From the NCBI GenBank assembly GCA_037379345.1, contig CM074524.1, positions 5,677,635-5,741,634 of the forward strand: a stretch of DNA of 64,000 nt, written 5' to 3'. The notes under the pieces were generated by a model. It worked only from the letters and a program-made list of their open reading frames with translations, searched no databases and was not told where the DNA came from. Positions 17,897 to 45,623 of this stretch are shown here, one piece after another. How positions within the stretch are numbered: the stretch's first letter is position 1; each line of letters opens with the position of its first letter. This DNA comes from Perna viridis. Lineage: Eukaryota. Both the position numbers and the translations under genes were made by a program.

Positions 17897-17922
17897 TTAC
17901 TTGTCTTCTCCTGTAGTGTCTC
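17897..17922 (-). CDS. Small secreted peptide gene, copy 1, last coding exon: (G)DTTGEDK*
   Basis: Pyrimidine-rich acceptor atctttCAG; phase 1 matches the donor at 18309; exon length and stop position conserved in copy 2. Confidence 0.7.
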
Positions 17923-18309
17923 CTGAAAGATATAAAATGCTTATTTACTATTTTCAATTAAATACCAAATATTTCGAAAATATTCAAACATGCAGTTTGT
18001 TCTTGATCAATATAGTAGTTAATTCAGAATTTCAACTTTACTGTAGGTCAGGATCGATATAACACTGATACTTATTTATCTCTTAATGGATGTTTGACTA
18101 CCTTTATCGTTGCATGTTGTTTTATTTTATCATTATCATAATTATATTTAGTGTCTTTTGAAGAACAAAAATACCAATGATACACTGTTCATTAATAATA
18201 AAAAAAATATGTTAACATAGTTTGAAAAGAAAAGATGTTTACATTTATGTATACAATGTATACGTATAAAATGTAAGAAATATTCATATAATTATATCTA
18301 AGTATTTAC

Positions 18310-18448
18310 CATGCAGACGGCCACGCCGGCTAGGCGGCGTATAAACTAATCGTCCTTGGATAAGTTTTTTTCTGCCATAAGATATTTCTCCATGACATAG
18401 TGCAATTATTGCAAGTAAGATAATCGTGATTATCTTAAAAATCTGCAT
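18310..18448 (-). CDS. Small secreted peptide gene, copy 1, first coding exon: MQIFKIITIILLAIIALCHG-EISYGRKKLIQGRLVYTPPSRRGRLH
   Basis: AAAATG start context, 20-aa signal peptide ending CHG, cationic mature region, G|GTAAAT donor, upstream acceptor tgttttCAG at 18472; frame preserved in the paralogue despite indels. Confidence 0.75.
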
Positions 18449-18849: not shown

Positions 18850-19355
18850 AAAGTTCCTACAAATCAATACATTACAATGCGCTTGTAATCTAATATAATT
18901 AATTACCTTTTTTAAATCAGCTTTTTCATCAAGAAATCGCTCCAAGATACATTCGATCGTTGGAACGTTCTTGCTATTTATGGAAAAATGAGAATCTCGG
19001 TCACCTTTACCTACCACGTGACATCTTCCATCGCCTTGACATTCTATGTGATATCATTCATACAAAGATACAAAGGATTCATTTTTTTATTTAAAAATAG
19101 TATCTCTTAACCTTTGAAATTTGATCTGGAAAAGTCGTTCATCTAATAGCTTTCGTATTAAAAATTCCTTCTCAGACGCGATTTGTAAGTATTGTTAACT
19201 ACTTATATGTTCTATATTTAGTCACAAATATGTCATACTTTATTGATATACTGTAGATTCAGAAATTGTTGTGATGTTTCTTTTTATTGAAGAAAAAATG
19301 CTAAAGACACTATTTCACTTTTATCTCAAAACTCGCACAGTTAAAGTTTTGGCGT
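18850..19355 (-). repeat. Upstream segment present three times (also 21110-21830 + and 25140-25800 +)
   Basis: GAATGTCAAGGCGATGGAAG and CTGTGCGAGTTTTGAGATAAAAGTGAAATAGTGTC in all three copies. Confidence 0.9.
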
Positions 19356-20054
19356 AAAACTTCTGTAGTGATGACTTCAACCTTGTAGCAACATGACCCT
19401 GTTCGAAAAGCCTACTTGTTAGATTCTAGCGCGATACAGAAAGTCAAGATAGTTTTAGCAAGCTCTGGCATAACGTATGGGTTGTGATATGAACAATCCA
19501 TACGCTGGTGCTGAAGGGATGTTGCCACAAATAAAAGGAAAGCTGACAATTCTGAATGAAAAATAAACACGTTTTTTCGTAAAGTTTGGTCAATAGTTTC
19601 CCCTTGCCATCGATTTCTAAGTGTATGTCAAGATATGCAGCTGACTTCACAATGTCTGTAGTATCCTTTATCTCAAGTTCTTTTGGGTAGATATGATGTA
19701 TCAAATCCCCGAAATTAGGATTGTTTAAAGATAATACGTCATCTATATATATATATATAGGAAACTGAGATTAAAGGATCTAGCTAAACGATATTGTCTC
19801 TTTCTGATCAGATTTGCTATAAAGTCAGCCCCTGAAGAGTGAACGAATAGGTCAGCATGTAGGGGAGAACAATTTGTACCCATTGGAATGCCGACCGCTT
19901 GTTGAAAAACGCGTCTACCACACTGGACAAATATCTTCTTCCTTATTTTTGGAAGATGATTTGGAATTATTTTTTCAAAGTATGTGGAATCTTTAGAAAG
20001 GCCTATATATTTGTATCTAGGTGTACCATCTTTCTTTGGAAAAACAACGATGTA
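19355..20054 (-). mobile_element. Naiad-like RT fragment, left arm of fold-back
   Basis: YPKELEIKDTTD, YLDIHLEIDGKGKLLTKLY, GIPMGTNC; reverse complement of ~20398-21110. Confidence 0.9.
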
Positions 20055-21110
20055 CTACCACACTCTCCAAAGAAGAGATAGTGGAAAACCATAATTCTGT
20101 GCTATCCTCTTTTGGTCTTTCTCCTAAGGACGATGATTGCTATTTACCGTCTATATACTGGATTCCTAAAGTCCACAAGAATCCATACAAACAACGTTAT
20201 ATAGCTGGATCTTCGAAATGTACCACCAAACCTTTTTTTAAAACTTTTAAATGTAGATCCTGAACAATTTCAAAGAACTTTTGGAGGCAATCTATTCAAA
20301 ACTATTATCAGAATATAATAGCATTAAAACAAATGATTTTTCAACACTGTATACTTCTATTCCCTATACTCAGTTAAAATCCCGACTTTAAAACATAATA
20401 CATCGTTGTTTGTCAAAAAATGTGGTATATCTAGATACATATATATATATGTCTTGCTAAATTTTCTTCATTCTTTGAAAGAAATAACTCCAAATCATCT
20501 TCCAAATACACAGAAGAAGATGTTTACAAAATGCTGGAATTTTTAATCGACAACATATTTGTCCAGTGTGGTTGACGCGTTTTACAACAAACATTCGGCA
20601 TTCCAATGGAAACAAATTGTGATCCACTACTTGATGACCTATTCATTCATTCTTCAGGGGCTGACTTTATAGCTAATCTGATCAGAAAGAAAGAATATTG
20701 TTTAGCTAGATCCTTTATCTCAGTTTCCGCTATATAGATGATGTATTATCTTTAAACAATTGTAATTTTGGGGATTTGATACATCGCCTCTACCCAAAAG
20801 AACTTGTGATAAAGGATACTACAGACACTATCAACTGCTTATCTTGACCTACACATAAAAATCGAAAACTATTGACAATACTTTACCACAAAGGTGATGA
20901 TTTTTCATTCATAATTGTAAACTTTCCTTTCATCTGTGGCAACATCCCTTCAGCACCAGCGTATGGATTGTTCATATCACAACCCATACGTTATGCCAGA
21001 GCTTGCTGAAACTACGTAGACTTTTTGTATCGCGCTAGAATTCTAACAAAAAGGCTTCTCGAAAAGGATTATGTTGCTACAAGATTTAAGTCATCACTAC
21101 AGAAGTTTTA
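20055..21110 (+). mobile_element. Naiad-like RT fragment, spacer plus right arm of fold-back
   Basis: LPSIYWIPKVHKNPYKQRYIAGSSKCTTKP, DFSTLYTSIP, GIPMETNC, FRYIDD; multiple stops and frameshifts. Confidence 0.9.
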
Positions 21111-22559
21111 CGCCAAAACTTTAACTGTGCGAGTTTTGAGATAAAAGTGAAATAGTGTCTTTAGCATTTATTTTTCAATAATAAGAAACATCACAACAAT
21201 TTCTGAATCTACAGTATATCAATAAAGTATAACATTTTTGGGACTAAATATTGAACATTTAAGTAGTTAAAAATACTTTCATACATTCGTCACACTTACG
21301 AATCACGTCTGAAAAGGAATTTTAAATACAGAAGCTATTAAATGAACAACTTTTCCAGGTCAAATTTCAAAGGTTAAGAGATACGATTTTTAAATAAAAA
21401 CTGAATCCTTTGTATCTTTGTATGTATGATATTAGATAGAATGTCAAGGCGATGGAAGGTGTCACATGGTAGGTAAGGGTGACCGAGATTCTCTTTTTTT
21501 CTATAAATAACAAGAAAGTTTCAGCCATTGAATGTATCTTAGAGAGATTTCTTGGTGAAAAGGTTGATTTTAAAAAGGTTGTTAATTATATAAGATTGCA
21601 CGCGTATTGTAGTGTGTTGACTTTTAGATTTAAAGAATAGTTTTCCATTCACATATCATTTGCGTGCAAACTTTTTTTTTTGTGACTGAATGTGTAGTAT
21701 TAGAACAAGACATTTTCATTTAAGGGAAGGAAAATAATAAAATTAGATTTTTTGATAGCTGAACACGAATCACACATTCAACTTGGTTACTTTCGCATGG
21801 CCTCTTAATGAATGAAAATGTGTTGCTTTGCAATGTAAATACTTCAATATAAATAATATATATGTATATTTCTCTTTCCATTGTAAACAAGAGTTTAAGT
21901 AAATGTCTTTTTGTTAATTTTTATCACAGTATTCAAGAGTAAGTGCGCGATTTTATTTTCTTTCAAAATATGAGTATGCTTGCAGCTTACTTTGGTTGTC
22001 ACGGAGGACGAATTCATTTCTGCTTAAAATGCTCAGTTTTGAAACAAAATCATTTTAATATGCATTTTTCCGATTATGAAAAAATACTACATAATTGCTA
22101 CATAATCACGAGAACATACGTAAAAATGGTGAAAAAAGAGCAGTTGAAACCATCACGCGACCAAGGTATACTATTGTTCAAGTGTAATTTTATTTTATAA
22201 AAAAATGTTATTGAAAAAGAACGGATATGGTAAAAGGTAACAAATGCACCAGAGTATAACCTAAATACAGAATAGTAAATATTTTTAGAGATCATCAAAT
22301 GATCTTTAATAAGTGAAAACACATCTTTAAGTAAGCTGTGGAAGGCCTCGACAACAAAATAACTGAATGATGATAATTCTTCAAAATCAAATTAAAAAGT
22401 AATATAACCACACAAAAGCACATTCATAACAAATATCTCCTGACTTTGGACAGGCGCATAAAATCTGTGATGAGGTTTCAATAGTTTTATTTTCTAACTA
22501 AACACAGAGGAGATTTCCTATATACACTCGTCAATTGTTTTCAAAAGAGTGAAAAAAGA

Positions 22560-23820
22560 TAAGCGTCTTTTGTATTTCTAGAACCACCCACTGTGTTGCT
22601 CATAAAAAGTCACATTCTGGGTAGAAGAAGGAAAAAACAAAACTATGACATGGTATGGAAGTCTATTTCTGTCATCGTGATAAATAAATGATGCAAAAAT
22701 TATCTCGAAAAGTCGTGATAATTTGGGTATTTTGTCGACATAAATGACAATTTTATCTAAAAAAGTCACGATAATTTTTCGCAATAATTAAGATAATTAT
22801 GTCGACCGTTCGATATAATTACATGAATTATCGCGACTTTAAGGGAACCGACGACAACTTGTGCCTTTGACATCAAATATTTTCACGATAAATTATGACA
22901 ATTGTACACTAATACAACGACTTTATGAGCTAATTATCATGACAAATCGTGATATATTATCGCAACTGGTCGGAAAGTTATGATGTTTAAGATATCTGTC
23001 GACATTAACTATCGCAATCTGAGAATTTAAAGTTGTGAAAATGCCAAGTAGTGTCAACAACAAAACATGCGAGTTGCGATATATCATGTTGACGTTTTCG
23101 TGAATGAACTTGGCTTATTGACTATATCTCGACAAAAGCTAGTTTTTCGGGGTAAGTTACGAAAACTTATCGTGACTTTTTGAGATGAAATTGTCGTTTA
23201 TGTCGACAAAATACACTAATTATCATGACTTTTCGAGATAATTTTTCGCGACTTTTATTTATCTTGATGACAGAAATAGACTTCCATAACATGGTGAACA
23301 AATCGGTTCTCATTGTGTAGGTGGATACACAGTAACGTCCTCGAGTTTATGATGACGACCATAAAACTTCTGTATTGATGACTTCAATCTTATATCAATC
23401 TAGCCCTTTTCCAGAATTCTTATTGTAAGAAGTGCAGCATGGTACAAAAACTCTGCGTAGTTAAGACAAGCTTTGGCATGACATTTGAGTTGTGATATGA
23501 AAACTCCATACGCTACATGTATAAAATCAGCCTCATGAGAGTGAAGGGATAGATCAGCGAGTATTTGTCACAATGGATGGAAAGCCAAACAAGCGTCCAC
23601 CACACTGGCCAAAAATGTCATTGGTAAACTAATCTAACATTTTGAAAACATCTTTTTCGATATATTGTGAAGATGATTTGAAATCGCTTTTTTTTACAAA
23701 GTATGGGGATTCTCTACCAAGAACGGCATGTGCAAATCTCGTTCTAGGTGTACTAATTTTTTCTTGAGTTATAATGGTGTAGAATGTTTTAAAGTTGGGA
23801 TTTCAACTGAATATAGGGAA
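22560..23820 (-). mobile_element. Decayed Naiad-like copy, inverted counterpart of 12305-13070, interrupted by a MITE
   Basis: Same internal deletion junction and the same downstream flanking repeat as the 12.3-kb copy. Confidence 0.85.
22654..23288. mobile_element. 635-bp non-autonomous DNA transposon with ~130-bp TIRs and 6-bp TSD (IS3EU-like termini)
   Basis: Ends TATGGAAGTCTATTTCTGTCATC...GATGACAGAAATAGACTTCCATA; ACATGG duplicated at 22648-22653 and 23289-23294; empty site visible in the paralogous copy near 12970. Confidence 0.9.
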
Positions 23821-24544
23821 CAGATATGTTCAGTTTGTTAAATTTAAATATCCTTTTGGATAAACTTAGATGAAGTTAAAATTGTACAACTACAACATAA
23901 AAAGAAAAAAATTCCTATTTTGCCCGTTTTCCAGTATTCTTTAGCTTTTTTTCCCTTATGCTAATACAGGCTGCTATGCTACTTATTATGTTGTCATTTT
24001 CTTTTACCTTCATGGCTAGTGTGTGACCTCAAGAACATCTGAAACACTAGCAGTGTCTTTGGACCACATGTTATATCTAACGGAGCAATCCGTAATAGAA
24101 AGAACTGGTAAAGACACCATAATTGTTATAGTGCATATCCACAATTTATGTGAAACATGTAATTCATATCTTCCAGAAGCAGATTGCCAATTCATATCTA
24201 ATTTTGTAGACGAAATTTAATGACCTATTGATCATCGCTTAAAATTGGTATAAATTTCCCAGGCAACCTTTTTGTTGTTTTTTTACAACATGAACGTTTA
24301 ATCATATAATCTGTATATTGGACAATACGCATGCGGGAAATATTTTTCACAAGATTTTAACAAATAAAAATAATAACAGGTTTCAAATGAAGTTCACATT
24401 AATTGAGACGTTTCGTGATTTTTACATGAACATTTTATAGGAAGTGTCTGTTAAGGAGGTTGACCAACGGTAATGGATATAACTCTTGAAATCAGTACTA
24501 TGTTTCTATTGTATTTAATTTCACAAAAGTCTATCAAGCTTTTA

Positions 24545-25085
24545 TTTGAAACAGAATGAAATCAGTCTATGTTACTATGATGCTCCCATGATATTGATGT
24601 AAAATGCAGAATACAAACGTTCCAATGATTTGTAAGAGTTGAGTCCCTTACCCTTCTTCTACCACCTTAAATGGAATAACAGGAAAGAATTTCCAACATA
24701 TACTAGTTTGATCAAACCTGAAATTTACTTTCTCTACTGTTGCATTAATTTTACACTAAGTAGAATTGAAACCGTGATGTAAATTGCGATTCTTTTTAAT
24801 GTTAGTTAAAAAGTATCATTGGAATGAAATATTGAATTTTTTTTTTTGAAATCAGTCCAAGTAACTTTGATACTTACATGAGATTAATGTAAAATGCTAA
24901 TTACAAACGTTCTAATGATTTGTAAGAGTTGTATCCCCTACCCTTCGTCTAACACCTGACATGAAATAACCTCACAGGATGTTCGACAAATATAAATTTG
25001 ATCAAATCCAAAATTTACTTTCTATACTCTTACATTAATTTTACACTAAGTTTTTTTTTTCAAACTGTGATGTAAATAGAGATTC
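24545..25085. repeat. Diverged tandem duplication, period ~290 bp
   Basis: GAAATCAGTC...TACAAACGTTC.AATGATTTGTAAGAGTTG...CATTAATTTTACACTAAGT at ~24558 and ~24848. Confidence 0.85.
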
Positions 25086-26052
25086 AGGTCAATGTTAGGT
25101 CAGAAAATATCATGTGCAAATAAAAAAACGGCTTTAGTAACGCCAAAAGTTTACCTGTGCGAGTTTTGAGATAAAAGTGAAATAGTGTCTTTAGAATTTG
25201 TTTTTCAATAATAAGAAACATCGTGACAATTTCTTAATCTACATATGTCAATGAAATATAAGATTTAGGTGACTAAATATAGAATACTTTTAGATACGGC
25301 ATGCTCTCAGATTGCGTTTGAGAGAATATTTTGAATACAAAAGCAAGTAGTTGAAAGACTTTTCCAGATCAAATTTCAAAGGTTAAGGGATATGATTTTT
25401 AAATAACAAAATGAATCCTTTGTACGTTTGTATTAATGATATCAAATAGAATGTCAAGGCGATGGAAGATGTCATGTGGTAGGTAAAGTTGGCCGAGATT
25501 CTTATTTTTTACATAATAAACAACAAAATTCTAGCTATCGAATGTATGTTAGAGAAATTTCTTGGTGAAAAGGCTAATTTAAAAAAAGTAATTAGTTATA
25601 TTAGATTACACGTGTATTGTAATGTGTTGACTGTTTAATTGTAAGAATAGTTTTTTCATTCACTATTTTTGTTTGTAACAAAAAACATCTAAGGGAAGGA
25701 AAATAATAAAATTTGATTTTTTTTCTAGCTGAACACGAATCACACATTAAACTTGGTTTCTTTTTCATGGCCTCTAAATGAATGAACATGTGTTGATTTG
25801 ATGTCTAATGTACACATGTTAATTCACCAAAATATCTCTGGTAAGCTATAGTCATGTTTAATGGTTAAAATATACACATTATATTAACGAATATTTTGTG
25901 TTGGTGGTCATACTTGCAGGAACCTTAACATATTTAAATATGACATTTTGCAAACGGTTTTAAAATATTTGAAGTTCAATTTTCGAGGTTAACTTGCACA
26001 ATCCTATATACACTTGCTACCTCATTGAAGTATCAGGGTTATGAATGTATTA

Positions 26053-26059
26053 TATAAAA
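26053..26059 (+). promoter_or_regulatory. Putative TATA box of peptide gene copy 2
   Basis: TATAAAA positionally conserved with copy 1. Confidence 0.45.
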
Positions 26060-26296
26060 TGTGACCGAATCTCAATCATATTAAGACATGAATGTTAAAG
26101 TCATAGGTTTCCTTGAGAAGGAAGCAGTTCCAGAGAAATATTGAAAGGTGTTGAACATGTCAGACTATTTATCATGTCCTCTGTTCATCTAACACCATCA
26201 GTAAATCTGTGTTGTTGAATATTCCAGTTATGTTTATTTTTACATTACCAAATAAATAAATTCAATGTTTTCAGCGACTGAGAATTGATTAAGAAA

Positions 26297-26426
26297 ATGC
26301 CGATTTTCAAGGTATTCACGATTATCGTACTTGTAATAATTGCACTATGTCACGGAGAAATATCTTATGGCAAAACAAAACGTATCCGAGGACGATTAGA
26401 TATACCGCCATCTGGCCGTCTGCGTG
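26297..26426 (+). CDS. Small secreted peptide gene, copy 2, first coding exon: MPIFKVFTIIVLVIIALCHG-EISYGKTKRIRGRLDIPPSGRLR
   Basis: Inverted paralogue of 18310-18448, absent from the ORF track (<60 aa). The corresponding donor reads GGAAAT instead of GTAAAT; unspliced read-through ends GKYLDTNI* at 26452. Confidence 0.7.
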
Positions 26427-27214
26427 GGAAATACTTAGATACAAATATATGAATATTTCTTACTTTTTATAAGTATACATTGTATACATAAATGTAAATA
26501 TCTTTTCTTTTTGATTTCATATTGTCAGTTTTTGTATTGCTTTTGTTAAATGGCTAATTCTTTCACTTCAATTAGGATAAGACAATACCGTATAAATAAA
26601 CACAGTCCAGTAAAAAATACAGGACGATGGTGTATATAAACAATAACACGAGAATGAAAATATAACTAACATTGAACTGATTATAAATCGAAAACACCCG
26701 AAATAATAACAGACGGTACACCAATATTAGGAGACTGCAACTTGTCTACATTTTGTTAAGCTTGTTTAAAGAATACAATTTGTATTATCTTTAAATCAAA
26801 AACAGCACTTCTATAGTTCATTCACGAAAAAAACTAAGTGTTAAACTAGGCAGGCATTCGCGTAATACGGAACATAACCGTTTTTAGTTTGTTATATTTC
26901 AAACTATGCTAACATGTTTTCTATGGTTACAGAACAGTGTCTCTTCGGTATTTTTTTCTTCAAAAGACACCAATTATAATTATGATAACGATGCAGTAAA
27001 ACACAAAAAACAACTTAAAAACAAACAGCCAGCCATAAACAGATAAATTAGATATAATTGAAATGGTTTTAGTTTTGATATCTATCCTGACCTTCATTAA
27101 AGTTGTAATTCTGAATAACTTCTCAGGTTCTCCAAAAATCATCTGAACTTCCGGATATTTGCTAAATATTTGGTATTATTTGAAAATAGCAAATCTGTAT
27201 TTCATTTCTTTCAG

Positions 27215-27240
27215 GAGATACTGCAGGAGAAGTAAAGTAA
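27215..27240 (+). CDS. Small secreted peptide gene, copy 2, last exon: DTAGEVK*
   Basis: tttcatttctttCAG acceptor; 26-nt exon homologous to 17897-17922. Confidence 0.6.
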
Positions 27241-28095
27241 TACCAAAGATGCTTTTGGACTGAATATTTATGTTGTAATACTGAGTGATGTGAAATAAAC
27301 TTTTTTAAGCCCTTACCTAATCTTTACACTTTCCCTTCCTTTAAATTTGTTTTGTATGTATTTACAGTTACTTTATGTTCTTGTTATGATTGTCTGTTTC
27401 CCATGTCTATTTATTGTCCCTGGATTACATTGTTTTGATTTCTACTAGAATCTTGGTTCCCTTTATTACTCTTTTAAATACATGTACACGCCTTTATAAT
27501 TGATGGTAATGTTTCAATATTGTGTTACGACATGCCGCGCAGAATTATAAGTATCAGAATCTATCAATTCACAATTGGCAGGGACATTTAGCTACTGTTG
27601 AAATCGATCGATAATAATTGTAAAAGAAGCCTAATAGTAGTTTTATTTTGTAAAAATGGCCTCCCTTGAATACACAAGTTAAGTTAGATACATCGTAATT
27701 CTTTAAATTGACTTAATGTTTCACGAGAAAAAATTGAGAAAAGTGATTGAAATCACAAAAAGGCATTTAGCTGTTTTTATCTGAAGAAATCATTGATTAT
27801 TTCAATATGGATGCAAATATTTAATAATTATGATACTTCTCCAAAATTGTAATTAACATCTTTTGCATTTATATATTGCTTCATTTCAGAATTAATCTAG
27901 AGAGTCTGATATCTGTTTCAGCAGCGTCGTTTCTATGAAATTCACTACGCTAATTGTCCAAAGGGCTTCCCAACTATACCTACCGGGGTAGATATTTAGA
28001 ATAAATAAAGGGGGATTAAAACAAAAAAATACAAAACCAAAATAATAAAACTATATAATAAATAAAAGTGCAAGGAAGTACTACGTTTATTAGTG

Positions 28096-28233
28096 GGGAA
28101 TGTCGTCCAGACTAACAGCGAATATGGTGTGCTAGAAAATACCAATGAATAGTGGCACGATGTAGGGAATGTCGTTCAGACTACCAGCGAATATGGTGTG
28201 CTAGAAAATACCAATGAATAGTGGCACGATGTA
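28096..28233. repeat. 2 x 69-bp near-perfect tandem duplication
   Basis: GGGAATGTCGT.CAGACTA.CAGCGAATATGGTGTGCTAGAAAATACCAATGAATAGTGGCACGATGTA at 28096 and 28165. Confidence 0.95.
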
Positions 28234-28329
28234 TTGAAACTTTATCAATGCCTGGCTATAATTGTTGATACACATTAGTGATTTCTCCAGAAGTATCCGT
28301 TGGGGATCTAGTGAAACGGTTGTCAGAAC

Positions 28330-28530
28330 TCTTCGTTTTCACCATCCATGTAGAGGTTACTGGGTTGTGATATGAAAACTTCTTAAGTAAGTGCTGAAGG
28401 GATGTTGCCACAGTAGTAAAGGAAATTTGACAATACGGAATGAACATTCATTGCGTTTGACGTAAACATTGGTCAAAATCTTTCCTTTCCCATCAAACTC
28501 TAAGTGAAAAATCAATACATGAAGCTGATT
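28330..28530 (-). mobile_element. Old Naiad-like RT fragment
   Basis: TGAAGGGATGTTGCCACAG and GTTGTGATATGAA shared with the copy at 4640-4800. Confidence 0.7.
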
Positions 28531-29669
28531 TATTTAATCTTGGAATATTTTCTTTTGATTTCCGCTCTACATGTTACCTAAGGTACACCATTCCTATTGA
28601 ACTGAGCATTCTTTCCTGTCATCCTGCGAGATGATACAGACACATTTATATTCAATGAACCAATAATGTTTAACACGATGTAAAAATATTTTAAAAGACG
28701 TTTTGACATTAAAACTCATGATAAAATACATGCATTAATTGTATAAGGCCTCTGCTAAGGGGAAATAATAAGCAGGAAAATGTTTGCAAAAAATCTAATG
28801 GGAATTTCAAGGTTTTATTTTAATATTACAAGAAAAAATTCAGTGACTTGCAGTTTTCGTTTTGAAAAAAGAATGTTAGTTAAATGTTCTTTATATAAAT
28901 ATAGAAAAAATTATATTTATTTAACTTGCTGTTAACCGAATTCAGTCAATCATAAATGGAATACATTGGAACAACATAACAAGTTTAGTTTTTGAATAAC
29001 AAGAAATCTGGTTATTAGTTTCCTTGACTAAACAATCTCCCTTATTGCTTACACTATACTCGGCGTCACATAAATAACATACTGTTAAAATTTGAATTTA
29101 AAAGCTGCTTCATATTAGAGATAATCGGATAACTAACTTAAAGAGCTGACGAAATGTGAAAAGTAATAAAAATACATTCGAGTTATCTGTCGTTTCACAG
29201 TCAAGTCCTGAAATAGACAAGTTCTTCTTGACGCAACAATTCCCAAATTAACATTTGATTTATTCCCCTTTCGTTAGTTTCTTCTTATAAGTTAGTTTGC
29301 AGATTTCGAGTACATTGCAAAACACACGAATGATACATGATTCGCATGCAATGGTAGGGTCCAACTTCGGTGAATGATTAAAAGGGATAAATCTTGAATG
29401 AATTTGATTTTTCTCAGAAATCTGTTAACGGGGAACAGCTTTTTAGAAGGGGGAGGGATAATTAAAAAGAAACACCAACTACTTAGGCTTGTATACTGCC
29501 CCAATTTCTATTTACATTCCAACACAACCTCACGAATGATATGCAGTAGTTAGGTTTGGGATTAAATTTAAAAGAATATTTGGTTTTCATTTTCAGAAAA
29601 GCAATGTACTGTTAGTTGATGCAGTAAATTAGGACAATTACTGCAAACATACTTGCGATGAGAAAAAGA

Positions 29670-30210
29670 AGACTGATGGACTGACTGATGGACACATAAA
29701 AAATGTTCATACCCCAATAACAAATCCTTAACTTTGTTACCTCGGGTATATTTCTGAATAATGTTACAAAGTCCAACTACCACCCAGTTTCGTAATATTC
29801 CACAAAAAGCAAGATCTTATGACCTTGCACACCATCATTATGTGTAGAAACATCCTGCAAAAATATTTTAGATGTAGTTCAGAAACTACCGGAGGACATA
29901 GCCTGAAAAGCCATATAGTCCTATTTCTACTGAACATGACTATAAATCTAACTATCACCAATTTCGGTAATATTTCATAAAATAAAAGTTCTGTGACCTT
30001 GCACGCCTTTGTCATGTGTAGAAATATTCTGCAAAATATTTTAGATGTGGTTCCAAACTGTATGAGGAGATAGCCAGACAAACCATGATCCATATATTTC
30101 TGAGTAAAATGACTAAGTGTATTAACTATCACCAATTTCCGTAATATTTCACGAAAATCAAAATGATTTGGGCCTGGAAAACTTCATCATGTGTAGAAAT
30201 ATTCTGTATT
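29670..30210. repeat. HINE/Helentron-like remnant with ~175-bp tandem units and (GACT/GATG) microsatellite
   Basis: AACTA.CACC.A.TTTC.GTAATATT at ~29776, ~29950 and ~30124; ATGTGTAGAAA repeated. Confidence 0.65.
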
Positions 30211-33200
30211 TTGTATTTAAGCGATTGTAGAAATTCATTAATAATGGTAAAATTTGGGATCACCTTTGTATAGGCTATATACTAGTATGGCTGCGTATTT
30301 GATAGTATTTTGGAGCAGGTATCGTCCCTGTGCTTCAACCATAAGAATTATGTACATGAAGATAGTCTGAAAGACAACTATTTGTATTGCAAATTATATT
30401 CTGTAGGTCCAGACCGATATTCATATTCAGCATATTGATGAATATGCTGTTTACAAAGGGAAATATTTTTAACCGGAAAAAAATGAATATGTCACCAGTA
30501 CAATAGTTTTTTTCCGCATCTTCACAAAACATGTAAATACGATTAAAATAATAAATCACTAAGGATTATCTATAGATATTCAGCTGAAAACTACATTAAA
30601 ACCCCTAATATATCGCAAAAAAGGACAACCTTGTGAAAAAAGTAAACGAACAGCATAATCGGAATCGAAATGCAAGTTTTCTAGTACTGTGTATATAGTG
30701 TATTGTGATACATCTTGTCAGTCTAACTTGTATTTACATTTACTTAAATGTTTTGTCAGCTGTACACTTTGTTAAAATAAGTTAAGACTTGCAAATAAAC
30801 TGGAATTCCATTAAAAACTATTAAACCAATATTTTCATGATCATTCTAATAATTAAGAATACGTTAAACAAATGACGGGTCCAGATTTTTACACAAAAGA
30901 AGATACTTTCTCTGGGCCGAAAATACGCATAGAATTCAGGTTTGCTATTCAACGCTGAGCAACATGTTGTTTATTTTTTTAAAACTTAAAGTATTCCTTA
31001 TTTGAGATAATGGAGATAACCGTAATTTAAAATACTAACTCTTTTGAATGGTTTTCGTTGGGTAAGAACGTTAGGTACGTTTGTTAATTATCCAATTATA
31101 TCTATTATGATTTTTACCTGACCTAATTATTTACAAATGTTAATCAAAAATGTTTAAAACGGAAAAAGTAACAAAAACGAGAAACAAGAAAGTATTGTTA
31201 GAAAATCAATAGCGTGCACAACATTTGGGATTTGGGAAATGTTTTCGTAAGGTGTGATCCGAAAAAAATCACCTCGTTGACTACTAGTTTGGATAATGAT
31301 TTTTTTATCCGACCTTTTCATGAAATTTGCACACCATGATTCAATAAATCATAATAAACGCAGTAGATAAATAGGATTTGGAAATAAGTTATCAGATGCA
31401 GTTAACAGAAGGAAATATATAAATTGTCTAAAAACAGTCAGTGTACAAGCTCAGAGAAAATGTAAACAGTTAAAAAGTCTTTAGTATTAAAACTTTTCCT
31501 GATTCAGATTAAACAATAAATGTTAAAAGTACTGTATATGTTTTATAGATTCAAACGGTTGATTAGGTCTAAACGCTGGGTGTTTAATTTTGAATTCGCC
31601 GTAAGTTATGTAAACGTCTGTAATAAATCGCCTTTAGTGCTGATAAATTTTGTTTCAAAAAATGCACAGTATAAGAAGACAAAAATAGTCCACCTTACTG
31701 AAAGAATATCAATAAGAGTTTTCAACCGTTCATACTACCAAATACTAGTTTATTACTATACATTTGCAAATGTTCTTTGACTTCTGTACTATTTTCGTGA
31801 TTAGAGGAAAAAGACGGGGAATATATACGGCTAAGATCTATAGCCCGGGCCTACCTTGATTAGTCCAAACTAGATATCTGTGCCATAATTCCACAAGGGC
31901 TGGTGTATCAAAATAAGATGGTATAATGTATGTGGAAAAACAAGATCTGATCATCAATACTTTTTCTGATGTGACTTTTTACCCCGTGAGTATTCCATCT
32001 GGTTGGTTTATGGATGTTCGTGCAAATGGACCAATTTTAATTATTGGAGAGCTATTTCACAAAGGCACTGTTAAATGCAGTTTATTCGGAAATACATAAT
32101 AACATTTTACACAAAGACCTGGAAATATTATAATTGCCAGGTACTTTGCCAACCAGAAATTTTGAGAATTGTAATTTTCGAATGAATTGGAATGATGTTT
32201 GATTAAAAGATATATAGGTATCATACCAGTGTATCATGAGATTTATTTGGACAAAAAAAATAAAAATAAAAAATAAATAATAATAATAATAATGTGACAG
32301 TGAAGCGGTCAAAGATACGAATGTTGGTCATAAGAAATCAATTGCTTTTTCATTTGATGAAATTAAATAGATCGGTCACTACTTTTTTTTTAATTAATGA
32401 CTTCATCTTTCTCATATCTCCACATATATAATTGATTTGAGTTTCATAACACATTTTTGAGTAAATAGAATAGATACAACCGCTTTCAAAGTCATAATAT
32501 TAAATATTTGAATTAGTTCGATGCTAGTTTCACTGTGACACATACATATATATATTTAGCTCTTGTGTATTATTAACTTCTTGTTTACACCATGAACCAT
32601 CCACATTACTCATTGCCCCCATGCCCGTTTCCCTATTGATTTCTCCGTAGCGTTTATCTGTATATTAGCACATTAATCACTATAGAATGCGAAGTTTTCC
32701 CCAACACAAGATCTTTATGTCATATTAAGTAAACTGAAGAAAATTATTAAACATAGTCAATAGGTTTAATACATAGTTTGTCGATATGGAAAATATATTT
32801 TAATGCTCTACATGCTTACATGATGGCAGAAATTGAAACGTTAACACGGTTAAAACATTTGACAATATTTTACTTTCGATTAAATAGAATATACACGATT
32901 ACTTCCACTGAATTATTTATCAAGTCTATAATTATACGTAAAATGCAGATGTGACATTCAGCAAAGTAAATTGAGCAGAATTTCCAAATCTAAAATAAAG
33001 AACACCATCTTGCAATCCTGGTATGGAATATTTCGATCATACTTGCAAGATATGGAAGATGTTCACACTCCACGCTGATTGTGACTCCTGAATCTAGCAC
33101 ATATATATCGTTAAAGCATATACTTAGAGCGGACAGTTTTATGTCCGAGTCTGTAGCGAAAACAAGCAAGAAACAAACAAAAGAAAAAAAAGCAAAACAG

Positions 33201-34952
33201 CTTTAGCAGCAATGTCACACCCTCCTGGATGTATAACCAGGTAAAATCATTTGCAGACAGAAGTTTTGCACGCTTATCCTACCGTGCACTTGGTCCATGC
33301 TTCCAGTTTCTAGCGAATTCCGATTTTTTTTATTCATTTAATACTGTACTGATACACAGGTTTTATCGCATTTTCTTATTTACTTATAAAGTTAAAGTTT
33401 AAACAAAATGATTGAGAGTAGTTCACTTAACACATAAATACTTTCATTATTTCCTGATAGTAAAATGTTGATTTTATAATGGCTATTTTGTTAAACAAAA
33501 AGATTATTAAGATTTACTCTTATAATTAAATCACCTTGTCGGAACAAGTTTTGTTTTATTCTAAATTCAATCTTCATTCAATTTCGAATTTTATACATAA
33601 TATATCATAATGGGTTATGAGATTGCACTCCTGGTGTTATTTACCTGTTATAAAAATGAGCTTATTCTTAATGTATTGGTAAAATTTCATTTAACATAAA
33701 GCAATTGAGAAAACTATTGTACAGTTAAAAGAAAATATTAAATCTTTAAATTACAGAAATTAAAAATACAAATTTTATAAGTGCATTAAATCTCTAATAT
33801 GATCACTCTTTCTCGTCTGCATTACACCTTATGAACGTTCCTTATCTACCTATGTACATGTAGCACAGCTAGTATTGGAAGGGTGAGAAACAAGTTCTGC
33901 AGAAGCATGTATTATCCGGACAACTTTATTTTAACGGATTAGATAAAACGTGGCTAATAAAGACTGATACGTATTATGCAACATGAGTATCTGGCAGTGA
34001 TCTATGATTCGCTGAAGTGAAGCCATATCTATCAAAGATAACAACGCTTTCTGATAAATGGTTCCTTTTACCCTTCGTTTTGTATCATAATTTTTTTTTA
34101 ATTTCGCTGAAGTCATTCAGAGGGGTCTGGGCCTTCTGATAAAAGGTTGTTTATACATTTCGTTCCGTGTAAAATAAACCATTCAATGAATCTCTTAAGT
34201 GAAGCCATGTTACACTTTAACCAGTCAAAAAACAATTCACCATATATAGCAGATCCGAGGAAATAAACATATGAAGAATTGTTTTAGGACGAAACACATT
34301 CATTGATTATCTTGAGATATGATGAATCACACCTGCTTGGTTTTTAGAAAGACAGTACTTAACTTTAGTGTTAAATGTACAATTTTTATCTGGTAAATCT
34401 ATACCTAATGTGTCTCTTTCAATTCGGAACGAAGCAACATTTATCCTCCTTTTAAAAACCAACATACAATATTATTGTGAAAGAGATAAATTTAGCATAT
34501 CAAAATTAAGTTTGCAGACAATAGAGCTACATGCAAAAATGTTCATCAGTTTTTGATATTTCTTATTCTGTGGTGATTTAAAAATAAATGTAAAAGCACT
34601 TGAATGAATTACAAAATTATGATTAAGAGTATAAAAATATGATGAAATTCACAAATCAATCAGATCTCGAATAATCGACATTTCGAAAATGTGCTTATAC
34701 ATATTGAATCATTCATAATAAACGAACAATTTCAATCATTTTCCACCTGAACAAAACACAAAACACTCCATAAAATTACTGATACAGTTTTATTAAAAAT
34801 AAGATGACTACCCGTGGGTAAAAAATGCTGTTCTCGCAGCTTTAAAACAACTTAGTTCTTGATGAACAAGACAGAGCCGGACAATTTTAAAACAGTAACA
34901 TTGTAGGAAACAATAGAATCGCCTGTCTTGATAATTATTTTATGCAAAATAC

Positions 34953-35302
34953 ACTAGAGACTCTAAAGAGCCACAATCGCTCACCGCGCTCGTTAAACAA
35001 CAAAGAGGGCAATAACTCCAACAATTAAACATGAAAATGTAACTGCAGAAATATCTCACCAAGCTGATCAATTTTACTCAGATTTAGGCTAAACTTAATG
35101 GTTTTGGAGATATATGCAAACATCTTCTGTCTGACCCGATGTATACTTTTGGTAACAACTGCCATGTTTTTCAACGGATCAAAAATCCCCAATCCGTTCT
35201 AAGCAGAACACTGTAAGGAATATCAATACCAAGTTTGGACCAAATGGTTTTCAAATACATATGCAGAACCTCTTTATTAAATTTTTGGGCCAGGTGAGCT
35301 AA
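34953..35302 (+). mobile_element. Helentron-associated non-autonomous element (HINE-like)
   Basis: Subterminal inverted motifs GCTCACC (34978) and GGTGAGC (35293) enclosing a decayed satellite-like core, a layout typical of bivalve HINEs. Confidence 0.65.
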
Positions 35303-36049
35303 TGCCTTTTAACAAAACAAAACAAAATAAGAACAATCGAAAGTAAAGAGAAAAAGGCAACATCCAACAACGAAAAAAAATAAAATTGGCCCCTGTGAAA
35401 TATGTCTGGCTTCTGCAGCTTCTCAAGCCTTGCTGAGGAGTAGGGGCAATGGATGTTAAAGAATGAAATTGTAGTTTGATTATTACCGAACTCGGGCTAT
35501 TTCTTTTTATACGAGCATTTCAGATCGTATCTGTATCATAACGTAACGAAAACAGTACTTCCCAAGGCAATATTTTTAAATGATATGTAACGTTTGTATG
35601 TTTTAAGACTTTGTGGATTTAAAAGCCGAGATAAACCTGCGATGGGAATTAATTCATGTATATTCAAATATATAATTCCCCACAGATTGTTTTAAATGTT
35701 TGATATAAAATTACAAATCAATCAACTTACGTAGTCTTCCCTGTTAGACTGGGATACAATTTAACATAGGACCATATGGATACCTCGAAAGGGGGGTTTC
35801 TTTTATATGAAATCGTACTATATTATATAATTAGGGCGGAATTCTATTCCAGAAATTGCGGGATACCTTTTCCTTGTAATTGTGTAAATATTTACCTTTG
35901 ACTAGCTTTAATAAGACCAATTACATTGCATTCAAATTATTAACTTAGATGCATGGAAAACATTTTGGTAAATATTGCTTTATCATTGTGCTGAATATTA
36001 TATACCAGTCTGTAGTCAGTGATATATGTTGATTTGAGGATGAATTGGT

Positions 36050-36880
36050 TATGTATTCTTAGTACTCACTCAATTAATCACCTAGAGAAGGTTTTCAGTC
36101 TTCTTCAGTTGTAACGAATGTAATTGAATCTCTATCAACATACATAACTCTCTGATACAATATCTCTAGATAGCTATGATGTGTTAACCTAGCTTGCTCG
36201 GTAGTATAGGCAGCCAATACGACGCTGGTTCATCCTGATATTTCAACTAATTTAGTTTGTTTTCCATCTAATTTCCACAACTTCGTCAAATACGAAATTG
36301 GCTTCTTGCTAAACACTTGTTAGGATATCAAAATATAGTGCTAGGTTTGATACATATTAAATTTTCGGTAATTTGAGCACTATCCAAATTTAGCATTAAA
36401 TTTGCCAATGATCGAAGCCTATGATTTTTCTCTCAATTTTGTCACATTCTAATTGGATTCCTTCTTTCTCAAAGTAGTCATCGATATATTTTTGTCTATC
36501 ATCCTCAGTTCCGACCCAAGAAGAAACGTGTTGATGTATTCACTGAAAATACCACCAGATTGGAACCTGGTGTCGTACTTTGCAATTTTGTTAAAGTGCC
36601 ATACTTCATAAGTCTTGTTTACAATATACTTTTGGCAATGGGATTTTAACTTCATCGGTAACTCAAGTATCCGTGATCTCTCTGTCGTCTTCTGAATGTA
36701 AGCATGTACTATGTTGGGGAGTCTAAGCGCATGCCCTACATATTAAGAGGCATTTTCAAAGTTTTCAACAATCACTCTTTGATGTCCTAATACTGCTTTA
36801 CCCGTTTTGATTATATAGGTGTATAAAGATATAACATCGTAATAATTGATGCTTTCATTCCCTTTAGCTTCATGAAAGAG
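36050..36880 (-). pseudogene. Polinton/Maverick protein-primed DNA polymerase B, C-terminal part (decayed)
   Basis: HEAKGNESINYYDVISLY (DxxSLYP motif), YEVWHF, GGIFSEYINTFL, VVLAAYTTEQARL, VMYVDRDSI (YxDTDS motif). Confidence 0.85.
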
Positions 36881-36960
36881 AAATCAAGGGAACCAAGGTT
36901 AAAGCGGTACGTTGTAATCAAAAGAATGTAATCCTGGTGCAATAACCTGACATGGAAAAG
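36876..36960 (-). mobile_element. Naiad-like 3' tip forming the left edge of the insertion in pPolB
   Basis: AAGAGAAATCAAGGGAACCAAGGTTAAAGCGG. Confidence 0.8.
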
Positions 36961-37956
36961 TATGTTAATGTGTTAAGGAGAAATGTCATAAATTGTGGTA
37001 TTTTTATCTACGAAAACGATCTGCTTTTAAACTCATCTTAGGACGTGAAATTTCGTCGATGTTCATATTTTAAGTATACTATTTTATAAACTAAAACACA
37101 AAAAAAAAAGTTCACAAAATTTCAAAATATGCAATAAAAATGAATCACGTGATTGGTTAATCAATCCTCGGTCGGACCACATAAATGTCAAGAGTGCGCT
37201 GGGAAGATGACAAAATTGTACATCCAAGTAGGTCAATGAATATGTTTATTTTTCAAAAAGTGCTGCGGAAAGAGTGAAAAATGTACATGAAGTTAAAAGC
37301 TGGCTGGCAACTTGCTTGTAATGAGATATTTCGGCGTTTTCTTGTATTTCAACGAATATTAAAACAAAGTGATACCGATCGATAACTTCTCGTAGCAGTT
37401 TTCTGGTAAAACAAAATATGCCCTTTGAAATGAAGTATAAATTTAGTAAATCGACATAGCACATGACACTGCACTTTTTAATTTACTAAACCATATAATT
37501 TTTCACACAAGTGCACTGGCGACCTCCCACACGTTGACATGTGACGAATATGTGTGCATAACCGATTCAGTTGCGATAACAGACTACGCTTTGAGTTTCT
37601 TATATCTTTATTTTTTTTACAAATAAAAACATTTTCTTTGAATATTGTAGTTATTTATAATATTATTTGCAGAAGAATCGATAACCCATTTTAAAGATGT
37701 CTTCTTTATCTGCAGAACAAAACATGATAACCCCCACTCTTTGTATGTTATCTTAGAAAATTATCAGATTAACATTGCAAAAGGAAAAGTATGATCTGAT
37801 TTTATGACTGCACACATTTTGAACATGTCATGTACTGTAAACGAAATTCCAAGCAAAATATTTATGATATGAATTAGGTTCTTTTTAGCATTCTATTTAG
37901 GAAATAATTATGTATGTATACATAACAATATTGAGTGTTAGCACAATTATAGAACG

Positions 37957-40900
37957 TTATGTTAATCACATTGATCACTGTACCTGTCCTATAGGATATG
38001 ATTACATTAACACCCCCATCTAGTCATTGGAATGCAGTTATGTTAATCACATCGATAACTGTACCTGTCGTATAGAATATGATTACATTAACACCTCCAT
38101 CTAGTCATTGGAATGCAGTTATGTTAATCACATTTATCACTGTGCCTCTCCTATACGATATAATTACATTAACACCTCCTTCATTGGAATGCAGTTATGT
38201 TAATCACATTGATAACTGTACTTGTCCTATAGGATATGACTACATTAACACCTCCGTCATTGGAATGCAGTTATGTTAATCACATTGATCACTGTACCTG
38301 TCCTATAGTTTATAATTACATTAACACCTCCATCCAGTCATTGGAATGCAGTTATGTTAATCACATTGATCACTGTACCTGTCCTATAGGATGTGATTAC
38401 ATTAACACCTCCGTCATTGGAATGCAGTTATGTTAATCACATTGATAACTGTACCTGTCCTATAGAATATGATTACACTAACACCTCTGTCATTGAAAAG
38501 CAGTTATGTTAATCACATTGATAACTGTACCTGTCCTATAGGATATGATTACATTAACATCTGAACCATTGGAATGCAGTTATGTTAATCAAATTGATAA
38601 CTGTACCTGTCCTATATGATATGATTCCATTAACACCTCCATCCAGTCAATGGAATGCAGTTATGTTAATCACATTGATAACTGTACCTGTCCTATAGGA
38701 TGTGATTACATTAACACCTCCGTCATTGGAATGCAGTTATGTTAATCACATTGATAACTGTACCTGTCCTACAGAATATGATTACATTAACACCTCTGTC
38801 ATTGAAAAGCAGTTATGTTTATCACATTGATAACTGTACCTGTCCTATAGGATATGATTACATTAACACCTCAACCATTGGAATGCATTTGTGTTAATCA
38901 AATTGATAACTGTACCTGTCCTATATGATATGATTCCAAAAACACCTCCATCCAGTCAATGGAATGCAGTTATATTAATCACATTGATCACTGTACCTGT
39001 CCTATAGGATATGATTACATTAACACCTCCATCATTGGAATGCAGTTATGTTAATCACATTGATAACTGTACCTGTCCTTTAGGATATGATTACATTAAC
39101 ACCTCCATCTAGTCATTGGAATGCAGTTATGTTAATCAGATTGATAACTGTACCTGTCCTATATGGTGTGATTACATTAACACCTCCGTCATTGGAATGC
39201 AGTTATGTTAATCACATTGATAACTGTACCTGTCCTACAGAATATGATTACATTAACACCTCCATCATTGGAGTGCAGTTATGTTAATCACATTGATCAC
39301 TGTACCTGTCCTATAGGATATGATTACATTAACACCCCCATCCAGTCATTGGAATGCAGTTATGTTAATCACATTGATCACTGTACTTGTCCTATAGGAT
39401 GTGATTACATTAACACCTCCGTCATTGGAATGCAGTTATGTTAATCACATTGATAACTGTACCTGTCCTACAGAATATGATTACATTAACACCTCTGTCA
39501 TTGAAAAGCAGTTATGTTTATCACATTGATAACTGTACCTGTCCTATAGGATATGATTCCAATAACATCTCCATCCAGTCATTGGTATGCAGTTATGTTA
39601 ATCACATTGATAACTGTACCTGTCCTACAGAATATGATTACATTAACACCTCTGTCATTGAAAAGCAGTTATGTTTATCACATTGATAACTGTACCTGTC
39701 CTATAGGATATGATTACATTAACACCTCAACCATTGGAATGCATTTGTGTTAATCAAATTGATAACTGTACCTGTCCTATATGATATGATTCCAAAAACA
39801 CCTCCATCCAGTCAATGGAATGCAGTTATATTAATCACATTGATCACTGTACCTGTCCTATAGGATATGATTACATTAACACCTCCATCATTGGAATGCA
39901 GTTATGTTAATCACATTGATAACTGTACCTGTCCTTTAGGATATGATTACATTAACACCTCCATCTAGTCATTGGAATGCAGTTATGTTAATCAGATTGA
40001 TAACTGTACCTGTCCTATATGGTGTGATTACATTAACACCTCCGTCATTGGAATGCAGTTATGTTAATCACATTGATAACTGTACCTGTCCTACAGAATA
40101 TGATTACATTAACACCTCCATCATTGGAGTGCAGTTATGTTAATCACATTGATCACTGTACCTGTCCTATAGGATATGATTACATTAACACCCCCATCCA
40201 GTCATTGGAATGCAGTTATGTTAATCACATTGATCACTGTACTTGTCCTATAGGATGTGATTACATTAACACCTCCGTCATTGGAATGCAGTTATGTTAA
40301 TCACATTGATAACTGTACCTGTCCTACAGAATATGATTACATTAACACCTCTGTCATTGAAAAGCAGTTATGTTTATCACATTGATAACTGTACCTGTCC
40401 TATAGGATATGATTCCAATAACATCTCCATCCAGTCATTGGTATGCAGTTATGTTAATCACATTGATAACTGTACCTGTCCTACAGAATATGATTACATT
40501 AACACCTCTGTCATTGAAAAGCAGTTATATTTATCACATTGATAACTGTACCTGTCCTATAGGATATGATTCCAATAACATCTCCATCCAGTCATTGGTA
40601 TGCAGTTATGTTAATCACATTGATAACTGTACCTGTCCTACAGAATATGATTACATTAACACCTCCATCATTGGAGTGCAGTTATGTTAATCACATTGAT
40701 CACTGTACCTGTCCTATAGGATATGATTACATTAACACCCCCATCCAGTCATTGGAATGCAGTTATGTTAATCACATTGATCACTGTACTTGTCCTATAG
40801 GATGTGATTACATTAACACCTCCGTCATTGGAATGCAGTTATGTTAATCACATTGATAACTGTACCTGTCCTACAGAATATGATTACATTAACACCTCTG

Positions 40901-41930
40901 TCATTGAAAAGCAGTTATGTTTATCACATTGATAACTGTACCTGTCCTATAGGATATGATTCCAATAACATCTCCATCCAGTCATTGGTATGCAGTTATG
41001 TTAATCACATTGATAACTGTACCTGTCCTACAGAATATGATTACATTAACACCTCTGTCATTGAAAAGCAGTTATATTTATCACATTGATAACTGTACCT
41101 GTCCTATAGGATATGATTCCAATAACATCTCCATCCAGTCATTGGTATGCAGTTATGTTAATCACATTGATAACTGTACCTGTCCTATAGGATATGATTA
41201 CATTAACACCTCAACCATTGGAATGCATTTGTGTTAATCAAATTGATAACTGTACCTGTCCTATATGATATGATTCCAATAACACCTCCATCCAGTCAAT
41301 GGAATGCAGTTATATTAATCACATTGATCACTGTACCTGTCCTATAGGATATGATTACATTAACACCTCCATCATTGGAATGCAGTTATGTTAATCACAT
41401 TAATAACTGTACCTGTCCTTTAGGATATGATTACATTAACACCTCCATCTAGTCATTGGAATGCAGTTATGTTAATCACATTGATAACTGTACCTGTCCT
41501 ATATGGTGTGATTACAGTAACACCTCCGTCATTGGAATGCAGTTATGTTAATCACATTGATAACTGTACCTGTCCTACAGAATATGATTACATTAACACC
41601 TCCATCATTGGAGTGCAGTTATGTTAATCACATTGATCACTGTACCTGTCCTATAGGATATGATTACATTAACACCCCCATCCAGTCATTGGAATGCAGT
41701 TATATTAATCACATTGATCACTGTGCTTGTCCTATAGGATATGATTACATTAACACCTCCGGCATTGGAATGCAGTTATGTTAATCACATTGATAACTGT
41801 ACCTGTCCTATAGGATATGATTACATTAACACCTCCATCATTGGAATGCAGTTATGTTAATCACATTGATCACTGTACCTGTCCTATAGGATATGATTAC
41901 ATTAACACCTCCGTCATTGGAATGCAGTTA
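37957..41930. repeat. Satellite array of 76/81-bp monomers (~51 copies) with higher-order repeats
   Basis: Monomer GTTATGTTAATCACATTGATAACTGTACCTGTCCTATAGGATATGATTACATTAACACCTCC(ATCCA)GTCATTGGAATGCA; identical ORF-track translations recur at 856 and 547 bp spacing. Confidence 0.98.
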
Positions 41931-42992
41931 AAACCCAATATGACACAAAACTGTATCTGAGTTCCAGGGAATATTTATTTACAAAGAAAACAGTCAAATT
42001 TCCTGTTACTCTCAGTTGAAAACTGTTGAAGTTCGGTAATATTCTGCCTCGAGATTCCATAAAGTCACCAAAGTGATAGAAATACCATCCATTAGTAAGA
42101 CTGTCCTGCTGTCTATGAGTTTGAAGCTTGAAGTTGGTAAATATCTTTGTGAAGAGTTAAATTAAAATTAGCATATCTGTCATGCAATTAAATTACTGGT
42201 CAGTCATTTAAAAGCCACGCGTACGGCCACACGGGTTAAAATGAATTAAATGATCAATTTCACTGAATATTATTGAAAGGAAAACAATATTTGCATCCCT
42301 GCCCTGCTAGATAGTCTGTTTAAAAGAAGTACTTTACAAGTTGATTAAAACTATTTCAAGAAGATGATATAAAAATACATTTACTAGTATTAATTTACAA
42401 ATTTGCGATCGGGTTGTATAATGTATTTATCATTTCAATACACATTTTGGCAGATAAAGATTTTAGAACACTGATCATGACAGTTGCTCGATGTATGTTA
42501 GTAGGTCAGTGATGAAATAACCACGGCTCAGCCGGTCCCGCACATAAATACAACCGTCTTTTAGCAAAATAAAGAGAATTGAAGATGCAACTTACCCAAA
42601 CTTCGAGAATTGTTTTACTGGTAACATGTATGACTTCAGAATTCGTCATTGATTGAAGTGTAATATCTCGGTAAATGCAAACATGAAGTCTCATTTTTTT
42701 ACTCTGTTTACAGGTGCTCTGACGTTTCAAGCTTCTCTGTGACGTCAAAATCGATACAAATAATGCTGTCAGTTTTGTTATGTTGTGTTTCTTTATTTAG
42801 ATGAGGATATATTCAATCGTTAATTTTTATAGATTAAAACTGAGGACTACATTTAATACTATAAATAGTCTTATGTGTTTTCAAAGATTTTGATTACTTC
42901 CGGAAAAAAGTTCTCCGAACTTCAAACGTCATGTATTGTGTGCGTGATCAGGCGTCAACCAGATTTTCAAGAAAACTCCTTAACCTACCCAC

Positions 42993-43345
42993 GTAATCAA
43001 GGAAATCAAGGTTATAGCGGTAATCAAAAGAATGTAATCCAGGGACAAAGACCAGACACGGAAAACAGATACACACAATAAAGAACATAAAGTAAGCTCT
43101 GGCATAACGTATGAGTTGTGATATGAACACTCTATATGCAGGTACTGAAAGGATGTTGCCACAGATGAAAGGAAAGTTGACAGTTTTGAATGAAAAGTCA
43201 TAACTTTTGTCGTAAAGTTTGGCCAAATATTTCCTTTACCATCGTTTAAGTCAAGAAATGGGACTTCCCAGCATTCCCCTACCACAGTGCCTGTAGTATC
43301 TTTATCTCTCAATTTCTATTGGGTAGATGCGATGTATCAAATCAC
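42993..43345 (-). mobile_element. Internally deleted Naiad-like copy forming the right edge of the insertion in pPolB
   Basis: KLYDKSYDFSFKTVNFPFICGNILSVPAYRVFISQLIRYARA fused directly to the distal 3' UTR. Confidence 0.85.
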
Positions 43346-45100: not shown

Positions 45101-45120
45101 GCACAGTAACAACAGAAAGA

Positions 45121-45465: not shown

Positions 45466-45623
45466 CATCTCTGAGTGTTTTCGTTTAAATTGATACCTGT
45501 GCAGAAAGTGATATATATATATATATCTAATTGTTTTATTTCTTAATATATATTGCAAGATCAATATTAATGCCCAATTCACACTTTCAAGCTAAATATG
45601 ATTTCAGCCTATCACGTGTAAAG

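Follow-up and report, generated by a model that had tools for sequence, protein, structure and literature searches.

The myticalins of Mytilus and the modiocalins of Modiolus are linear antimicrobial peptides whose genes, as described in PMC5577615 and PMC12294457, share a common layout. An intron acceptor lies just 5' of the ATG, exon 2 encodes the signal peptide and a hypervariable, cysteine-free core rich in Arg and Pro, a phase-1 intron follows the signal and the mature region, and exon 3 holds the tail and the 3' UTR. According to the same papers, Arg makes up more than 10% of the mature region, and the paralogues are clustered, with relics and damaged alleles among them. The myticalin precursor also has a Lys-Arg site between core and tail as well as an anionic extension, which is 35-75 residues long and less than that in modiocalins.

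The genes analysed here belong to a family with two copies (copy 1 and copy 2) in the window, a 64,000-nt stretch of DNA in which all positions are counted on the forward strand; copy 2 lies on the plus strand and copy 1 on the minus strand. The layout agrees with that of the myticalin and modiocalin genes in exon 2, the phase-1 intron and exon 3, and clustered paralogues, relics and a probably damaged allele occur here as well. The phase-1 intron is present in 7/7 copies, with its joint observed in contigs of runs X2 and X4, and 5 of the 23 core residues of copy 2 are Arg; for the acceptor upstream of the ATG the candidate is an acceptor-like TTTCAG, at which no joint was seen among those listed. 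The differences from these systems lie in the rest of the precursor. It measures 42-54 aa, with a core of 14-26 residues and a weakly acidic tail of 6-7 residues (after the junction residue) of net charge -3 to +1, and a dibasic pair before the tail is absent from 7/7 precursors. Compared by eye, the signal matches the published consensus at 4-5 of its 18 specified positions and has in common with it only Ala-Leu-Cys and a Gly seven residues later. Since the Lys-Arg site and the long acidic extension, which define myticalin precursors, are absent, this comparison places the family as myticalin-like and not as a member. Oyster Cg-Prp and the molluscidins, as the introduction of PMC5577615 describes them, are likewise linear cationic peptides of molluscs, short and rich in Arg, Pro or Lys; the molluscidins are said there to have no signal peptide, whereas the present family has a predicted one.

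Copies, relics and duplications of the family

A search of the genome itself returned at least six DNA matches and at least seven protein matches. Seven copies with intact frames were recognized, and they are listed here together with the relics and the duplication that surrounds copy 2.

17897..18448, minus strand: copy 1, with an intact GT-AG intron and a predicted precursor of 54 aa (ATG at 18448, intron start at 18309, exon 3 from 17922)
26275..27416, plus strand: copy 2, exons 2 and 3 (detailed below)
Contig C3, near 17.03 Mb: copies L002 (G000:C3:17.03 Mb) and L006
Contig C14, 7.05-7.16 Mb: copies L003 (G000:C14:7.05 Mb), L004 and L013
13857..14088, minus strand: orphan exon 3 with an intact acceptor; an exon 2 of its own was searched for and none was found
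20169..23686, plus strand: relic of an L006-type copy; one deletion (21829/21832) has removed promoter and exon 2, another (22067/22093) has removed exon 3, and the intron start is kept
24287..44686, no strand assigned: inverted segmental duplicate, about 85-93% in pieces, whose partner (G000:C14:7038001-7057024) bears L003

The precursors of all seven are open, and all indels across the seven coding regions preserve the frame. The preliminary description had taken the family for a real, spliced coding gene, and the phase-1 joints found in the X4 contig (L006-type) and the X2 contig (copy 2) bear this out. In a tree of the seven copies, L002 and L003 formed a group with copy 2 (98/96), and L004 paired with copy 1 (100/99). 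Judged from this tree, copy 1, with which copy 2 had been compared, is the wrong comparator, L002 and L003 being closer sisters. This matters for several traits that had been attributed to copy 2. Its mature part is indeed three codons shorter than that of copy 1 with the frame kept, but the 9-nt gap is not peculiar to it; it is common to copy 2, L002 and L003 and is therefore older than copy 2. The cleavage region, which had been called invariant, is so between copies 1 and 2, where residues 14-25 are identical, but not across the family: L002 has one change in these residues, L006 is without ten codons there and L013 differs. Signal-peptide changes are in general conservative, as had been stated, with the exception of Q2P. 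The positive charge of the mature part, described as about +5, is kept: counted as K+R minus D+E over the exon-2 residues beyond residue 20, the net charge comes to +5 for copy 2 and +6 for copy 1.

The inverted duplication around copy 2 extends over at least 20 kb. A tandem array of about 50 copies of 76- and 81-nt units lies at 37866-41900, and the duplication partner on C14 skips it. The L006-type relic sits between copies 1 and 2 and bears two clean deletions relative to the L006 locus on C3. The orphan exon 3 lies 3.9 kb downstream of exon 3 of copy 1, which it may serve as an alternative last exon, or it may be a relic. On C14, locus L024 (G000:C14:7163253-7163400 and 7162350-7162492, minus strand) comprises a much-diverged exon that ends in the family donor; neither an ATG nor a signal was seen in it, and an exon-3 copy is found 0.8 kb downstream. 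A search with the donor pattern gave 13 matches against 13 in controls, and 9 of them fell at family loci. Read from the sequence, the copies, the relics and the orphan exon form a picture of duplication and loss.

Mobile DNA was also observed in the window. A retroelement-like dispersed repeat with reverse-transcriptase-like frames and thousands of homologues, which we take to be of the Penelope-like class, occupies 4175-5127, 19355-21110 and 52326-54058, and broken frames at 43700-47460 recall, by eye, a mobile element of the integrase and polymerase type.

Predicted peptides and searches for homologues

The family of small peptides has apparently not been described so far. Searches of 5.8 billion proteins (restricted to lengths near that of the query) and of the ESM Atlas gave no homologue, the best ESM Atlas score being 0.80. 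Two matches among 1.84 billion representatives were translations of tandem repeats and were rejected as homologues. Pfam gave one match of 13.7 bits, below its cut-off of 25, and the only PDB match (E 0.96) was to an Arg-rich Tat peptide. The Pfam family Mfp-3, sought as a clue to a mussel-like host, had no match. Literature searches with three family motifs gave no match, and those by description returned at most general reviews and not the family; supplements could hold such peptides.

In all seven copies the core is cysteine-free and contains 4-7 Arg/Lys and 2-3 Pro. By analogy with the systems described above, the family consists of predicted secreted, Arg/Pro-rich linear peptides and its role is probably defensive. 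The peptide would be exported, with the signal cut after Gly20 or Gly25 as judged by eye, and its probably unstructured cationic core would then act on microbes. A different function, as another type of short secreted peptide (signalling, reproductive, adhesive or matrix), is possible and in our view the less probable one; it is independent of the splice question. It draws on the lack of a database match to any defence family and on a motif after position 25, a Gly with basic residues behind it, which might represent a signal for amidation and cleavage. The fast evolution of the core described below would also fit it, as reproductive peptides too are marked by fast evolution. On the other hand, the Gly-basic motif is absent in L006 and altered in L013, and both the cysteine-free Arg/Lys and Pro core common to all copies and a gene layout like that of a known linear antimicrobial family argue against such a function.

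The GG donor of copy 2 and its splicing

The elements of copy 2 are as follows.

26051..26057, plus strand: TATA-like box, candidate promoter with putative function, the sole TATA[AT]A[AT] match within 25900-26297
26275..26426, plus strand: exon 2, with a 22-nt leader, the ATG at 26297, a predicted signal peptide of 20 or 25 residues and the Arg/Pro-rich core
26424..26425, plus strand: new in-phase GT created by CAT>CGT, 3 nt upstream of the old donor, in a weak context
26427..27214, plus strand: intron 2, 788 nt, phase 1, GG..AG in the assembly, with an internal AATAAA at 26595 and the acceptor AG at 27213-14
26427..26463, plus strand: opening 37 nt of intron 2, a stretch that four paralogues share letter for letter, containing the read-through codons and the TGA at 26450-52
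27215..27416, plus strand: exon 3, with a 7-residue tail, the stop at 27238-40 and AATAAA at 27294

The promoter-candidate region is kept across six copies in the paralogue alignment. The conserved, acceptor-like TTTCAG ends at 26274, 22 nt 5' of the ATG; no joint to an upstream exon was present among the joints listed from the runs, and exon 1 of copy 2 was not located. The coding part of exon 2 comprises 130 nt from the ATG and ends at 26426 in phase 1. The transcript contig extends to at least 27416. It was observed to pass the AATAAA at 27294 into a highly transcribed dispersed repeat (27364-27480).

Intron 2 starts with GT in six of the seven intact-frame copies and with GG in copy 2 only, where GGAAAT is found in place of the GTAAAT of copy 1. 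The window agrees with the preliminary description on this point, on the GT that the CAT>CGT change creates in phase 3 nt upstream, and on the read-through frame, which is open until the TGA at 26450-52. The doubt raised there, that GG might be an assembly error, was dispelled: the GG at 26427-28 lies inside a genomic contig of run X5 (26343-26494, depth 112) that contains 0 other letters, which rules out an assembly or consensus error, and four further listed X5 pieces match the assembly exactly. The genomic-type runs examined were X5 and X7 (two of the three listed), whose type was judged from even coverage over introns and flanks; they come from one sample, which may be the assembly source and so provides neither an independent check nor zygosity. 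Among 40 of the 51 difference rows for X5 and X7 there was no G>T at 26428, rare variants being dropped from contigs.

Splicing was analysed in six of the 21 RNA or presumed RNA runs listed, the RNA status of X1-X4 being a guess. In run X2, a 245-nt contig of depth 2.2 consisted of 26384-26425, the 3' end of exon 2, followed by 27214-27416, with 788 nt skipped. As the position has two letters of slack, this joint (26425/27214) is the same as the ancestral one, 26426/27215. The contig differs from copy 2 by one letter in 42 and one in 203 (2 of 245). Any of the six paralogues would differ from it at 5-9 letters over the first piece and at 19-62 over the second; the contig is therefore best read as an allele of copy 2, and the counts against all six rule out its origin from a paralogue. 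The copy-2 junction is thus carried by a single contig of depth 2.2 in one run of guessed RNA status, and it was not found in the other five of the six RNA-type runs examined. In run X4, an L006-type contig of depth 43 had exon 2 joined to exon 3 at the same phase-1 site and held the 44 intervening letters that L006 predicts.

The copy-2 junction comes from sample S2 and the GG from sample S5, so that genome and RNA are from unmatched samples, and the donor letters of X2 have been spliced out of view. The simpler reading is that the X2 contig stems from a GT allele. We favour, with a probability of about 0.55, the view that the GG donor of copy 2 is an ordinary splice-damaging variant of this haplotype and that the allele of the other sample is spliced at the ancestral site. 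The spliced X2 allele would carry GT, and the GG allele would mostly read through to the TGA at 26450 or splice poorly. Precedents exist in the literature: PMC4176328 names splice-site variants among the causes of falsely called non-canonical introns, and pseudogenic alleles have been described for myticalins (PMC12294457). In every outcome the last 7-8 residues alone would change and the exon-2 core would stay intact, and the effect of the donor change may therefore be small, or act through the mRNA level.

The preliminary description had raised the option that the new GT at 26424 may now serve as donor, which would shorten the product by one Gly. This site is canonical and in phase, but the lone junction seen skips 788 nt and not the 791 nt that its use would remove (in RNA that is not known to come from a GG carrier). 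The shifted joint 26423/27215 was absent from every RNA-type run examined, and with a donor matrix TGC|GTGGGA ranks 21 of the 43 GTs in the gene. Use of this donor is very improbable.

A different possibility is that GG is fixed or common and that a non-canonical GG-AG intron is removed at the ancestral position, aided by the conserved flanks. The only junction seen does map to GG..AG on this assembly, and the difference rows shown for X5 and X7 include none that would give copy 2 a GT. With the same matrix, the flanks of the ancestral donor apart from position +2 score best in the gene (2.5 against 2.1 for the top GT), and a GG-AG site has been reported in human CPSF3 (PMC4176328). Such introns are rare, however, and in that study genome and RNA were matched or variants were filtered, whereas here genome and RNA are from different samples. 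X5 and X7 represent one sample, possibly the assembly source, with rare variants dropped from contigs, and the X2 contig comes from another sample whose donor may differ just as 2 of its 245 letters do. We regard a GG-AG intron as unlikely, though worth keeping in mind.

Retention of the intron, through which copy 2 had been suggested to swap its C-terminal tail, found no support: no RNA contig or read from the examined runs crosses the copy 2 donor into the intron, which is a blank and not a disproof. The junction check proposed earlier thus yielded the ancestral joint in one X2 contig, with neither the shifted joint nor retention seen. The raw-read runs X8 and X9, of which 19% and 24% were read, gave no junction; X9 had a depth of about 1.4 over 26266-26387, with reads indistinguishable from L002 or L003. 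Intron pieces from X1 (26820-27021), X4 (27090-27222) and X3 (27118-27304) were considered as copy-2 retention and rejected. The X3 piece is no sign of it because it has the letters of L002/L003 there, and the donors of both are intact. Runs X3 and X4 also contain pieces of the upstream flank.

The start of intron 2 is well conserved among four of the copies. Its first 37 nt are identical in copy 1, L002, L003 and L004; beyond them, three of those four show variation at 97 of 321 intron columns (p 1e-5, with the boundary picked after looking). Copy 2 departs from this stretch at +2, +16 and +19, for which p is 0.07 given its background rate. The identity could stem from a splicing element, from gene conversion or from a read-through isoform common to the whole family. 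A bolder proposal combines these observations: an undescribed family of very short cationic defence peptides with a switchable tail, in which the 37 nt would supply each close copy with an alternative end of 8 residues, and copy 2 would have fixed a GG donor that is still spliced as GG-AG, with the balance of tails shifted. We consider this combination improbable as a whole.

Divergence of the cationic core

Mismatches in the core (the exon-2 region after residue 20) were compared by Fisher test with those in non-coding DNA (flanks, intron and 3' UTR). Against L002, copy 2 had 9/70 in the core and 73/1277 in non-coding DNA (p 0.033; Nd/Sd 8/1), and against L003 the counts were 11/70 and 69/1265 (p 0.002; Nd/Sd 9/2). 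Since the copy-2 branch enters into both comparisons, they are not independent of each other; around the 9-nt gap the alignment of the core is ambiguous, so that mismatches may be inflated. Non-coding divergence from the sisters is about 5.5%, and the replacement rate exceeds the non-coding rate with p 0.007 (L002) and 0.002 (L003). The signal region was not elevated (5/60 and 3/60), and the tail had an Nd of 0. In the independent pair copy 1/L004, Nd/Sd was 14.5/1.5, ungapped. The cationic core thus outpaces the neighbouring non-coding DNA in the sister comparisons, mostly by replacements.

This excess was not seen against more distant copies: copy 2 had 8/70 in the core and 158/863 in non-coding DNA against copy 1 (p 0.19), and 9/70 and 156/874 against L004 (p 0.33). 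On the copy-2 branch, at sites where the outgroups agree, 5/134 coding and 20/767 non-coding changes were counted (p 0.40), and the coding changes (four replacements, one silent) are at the neutral ratio; this test excludes the most variable sites and, with five changes, has little power. The diversification of the mature region claimed earlier, and its contrast with a flat signal, accordingly stand against L002 and L003, but not in the comparison with copy 1 on which the claim had been based, nor on the copy-2 branch. Since that branch looks neutral and the sister comparisons show the core excess, core diversification is read as a trait of the family, and copy 2 itself may be relaxed.

The GG allele of copy 2 may be decaying. 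The further-reaching suggestion that copy 2 as a whole, beyond this allele, is decaying to a pseudogene and that the transcript seen is residual would fit the neutral-like branch, the changes at sites kept elsewhere (Q2P, H43R, donor +2, intron +16 and +19) and the presence of two relics within 13 kb. It has to be set against a frame, acceptors, stop and core charge that are all intact, the existence of a spliced copy-2 contig and the low power of the branch test, and we judge it doubtful. In our ranking a damaged allele is the most likely explanation of the GG donor; a GG-AG intron or decay of the whole copy is less so, and the shifted donor comes last.

If matched DNA and RNA gave GG-AG splicing, copy 2 would be a natural case of a rare class of intron, for which the six GT-AG paralogues could act as controls. 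The family itself is the more useful result: seven precursors absent from the databases, laid out like myticalins, whose core evolves faster than the flanks. Annotation easily overlooks genes of such small size, and the precursors are short enough to be synthesized and tested as linear antimicrobial peptides. As a family, these genes would turn over by duplication, diversification of the core and loss.
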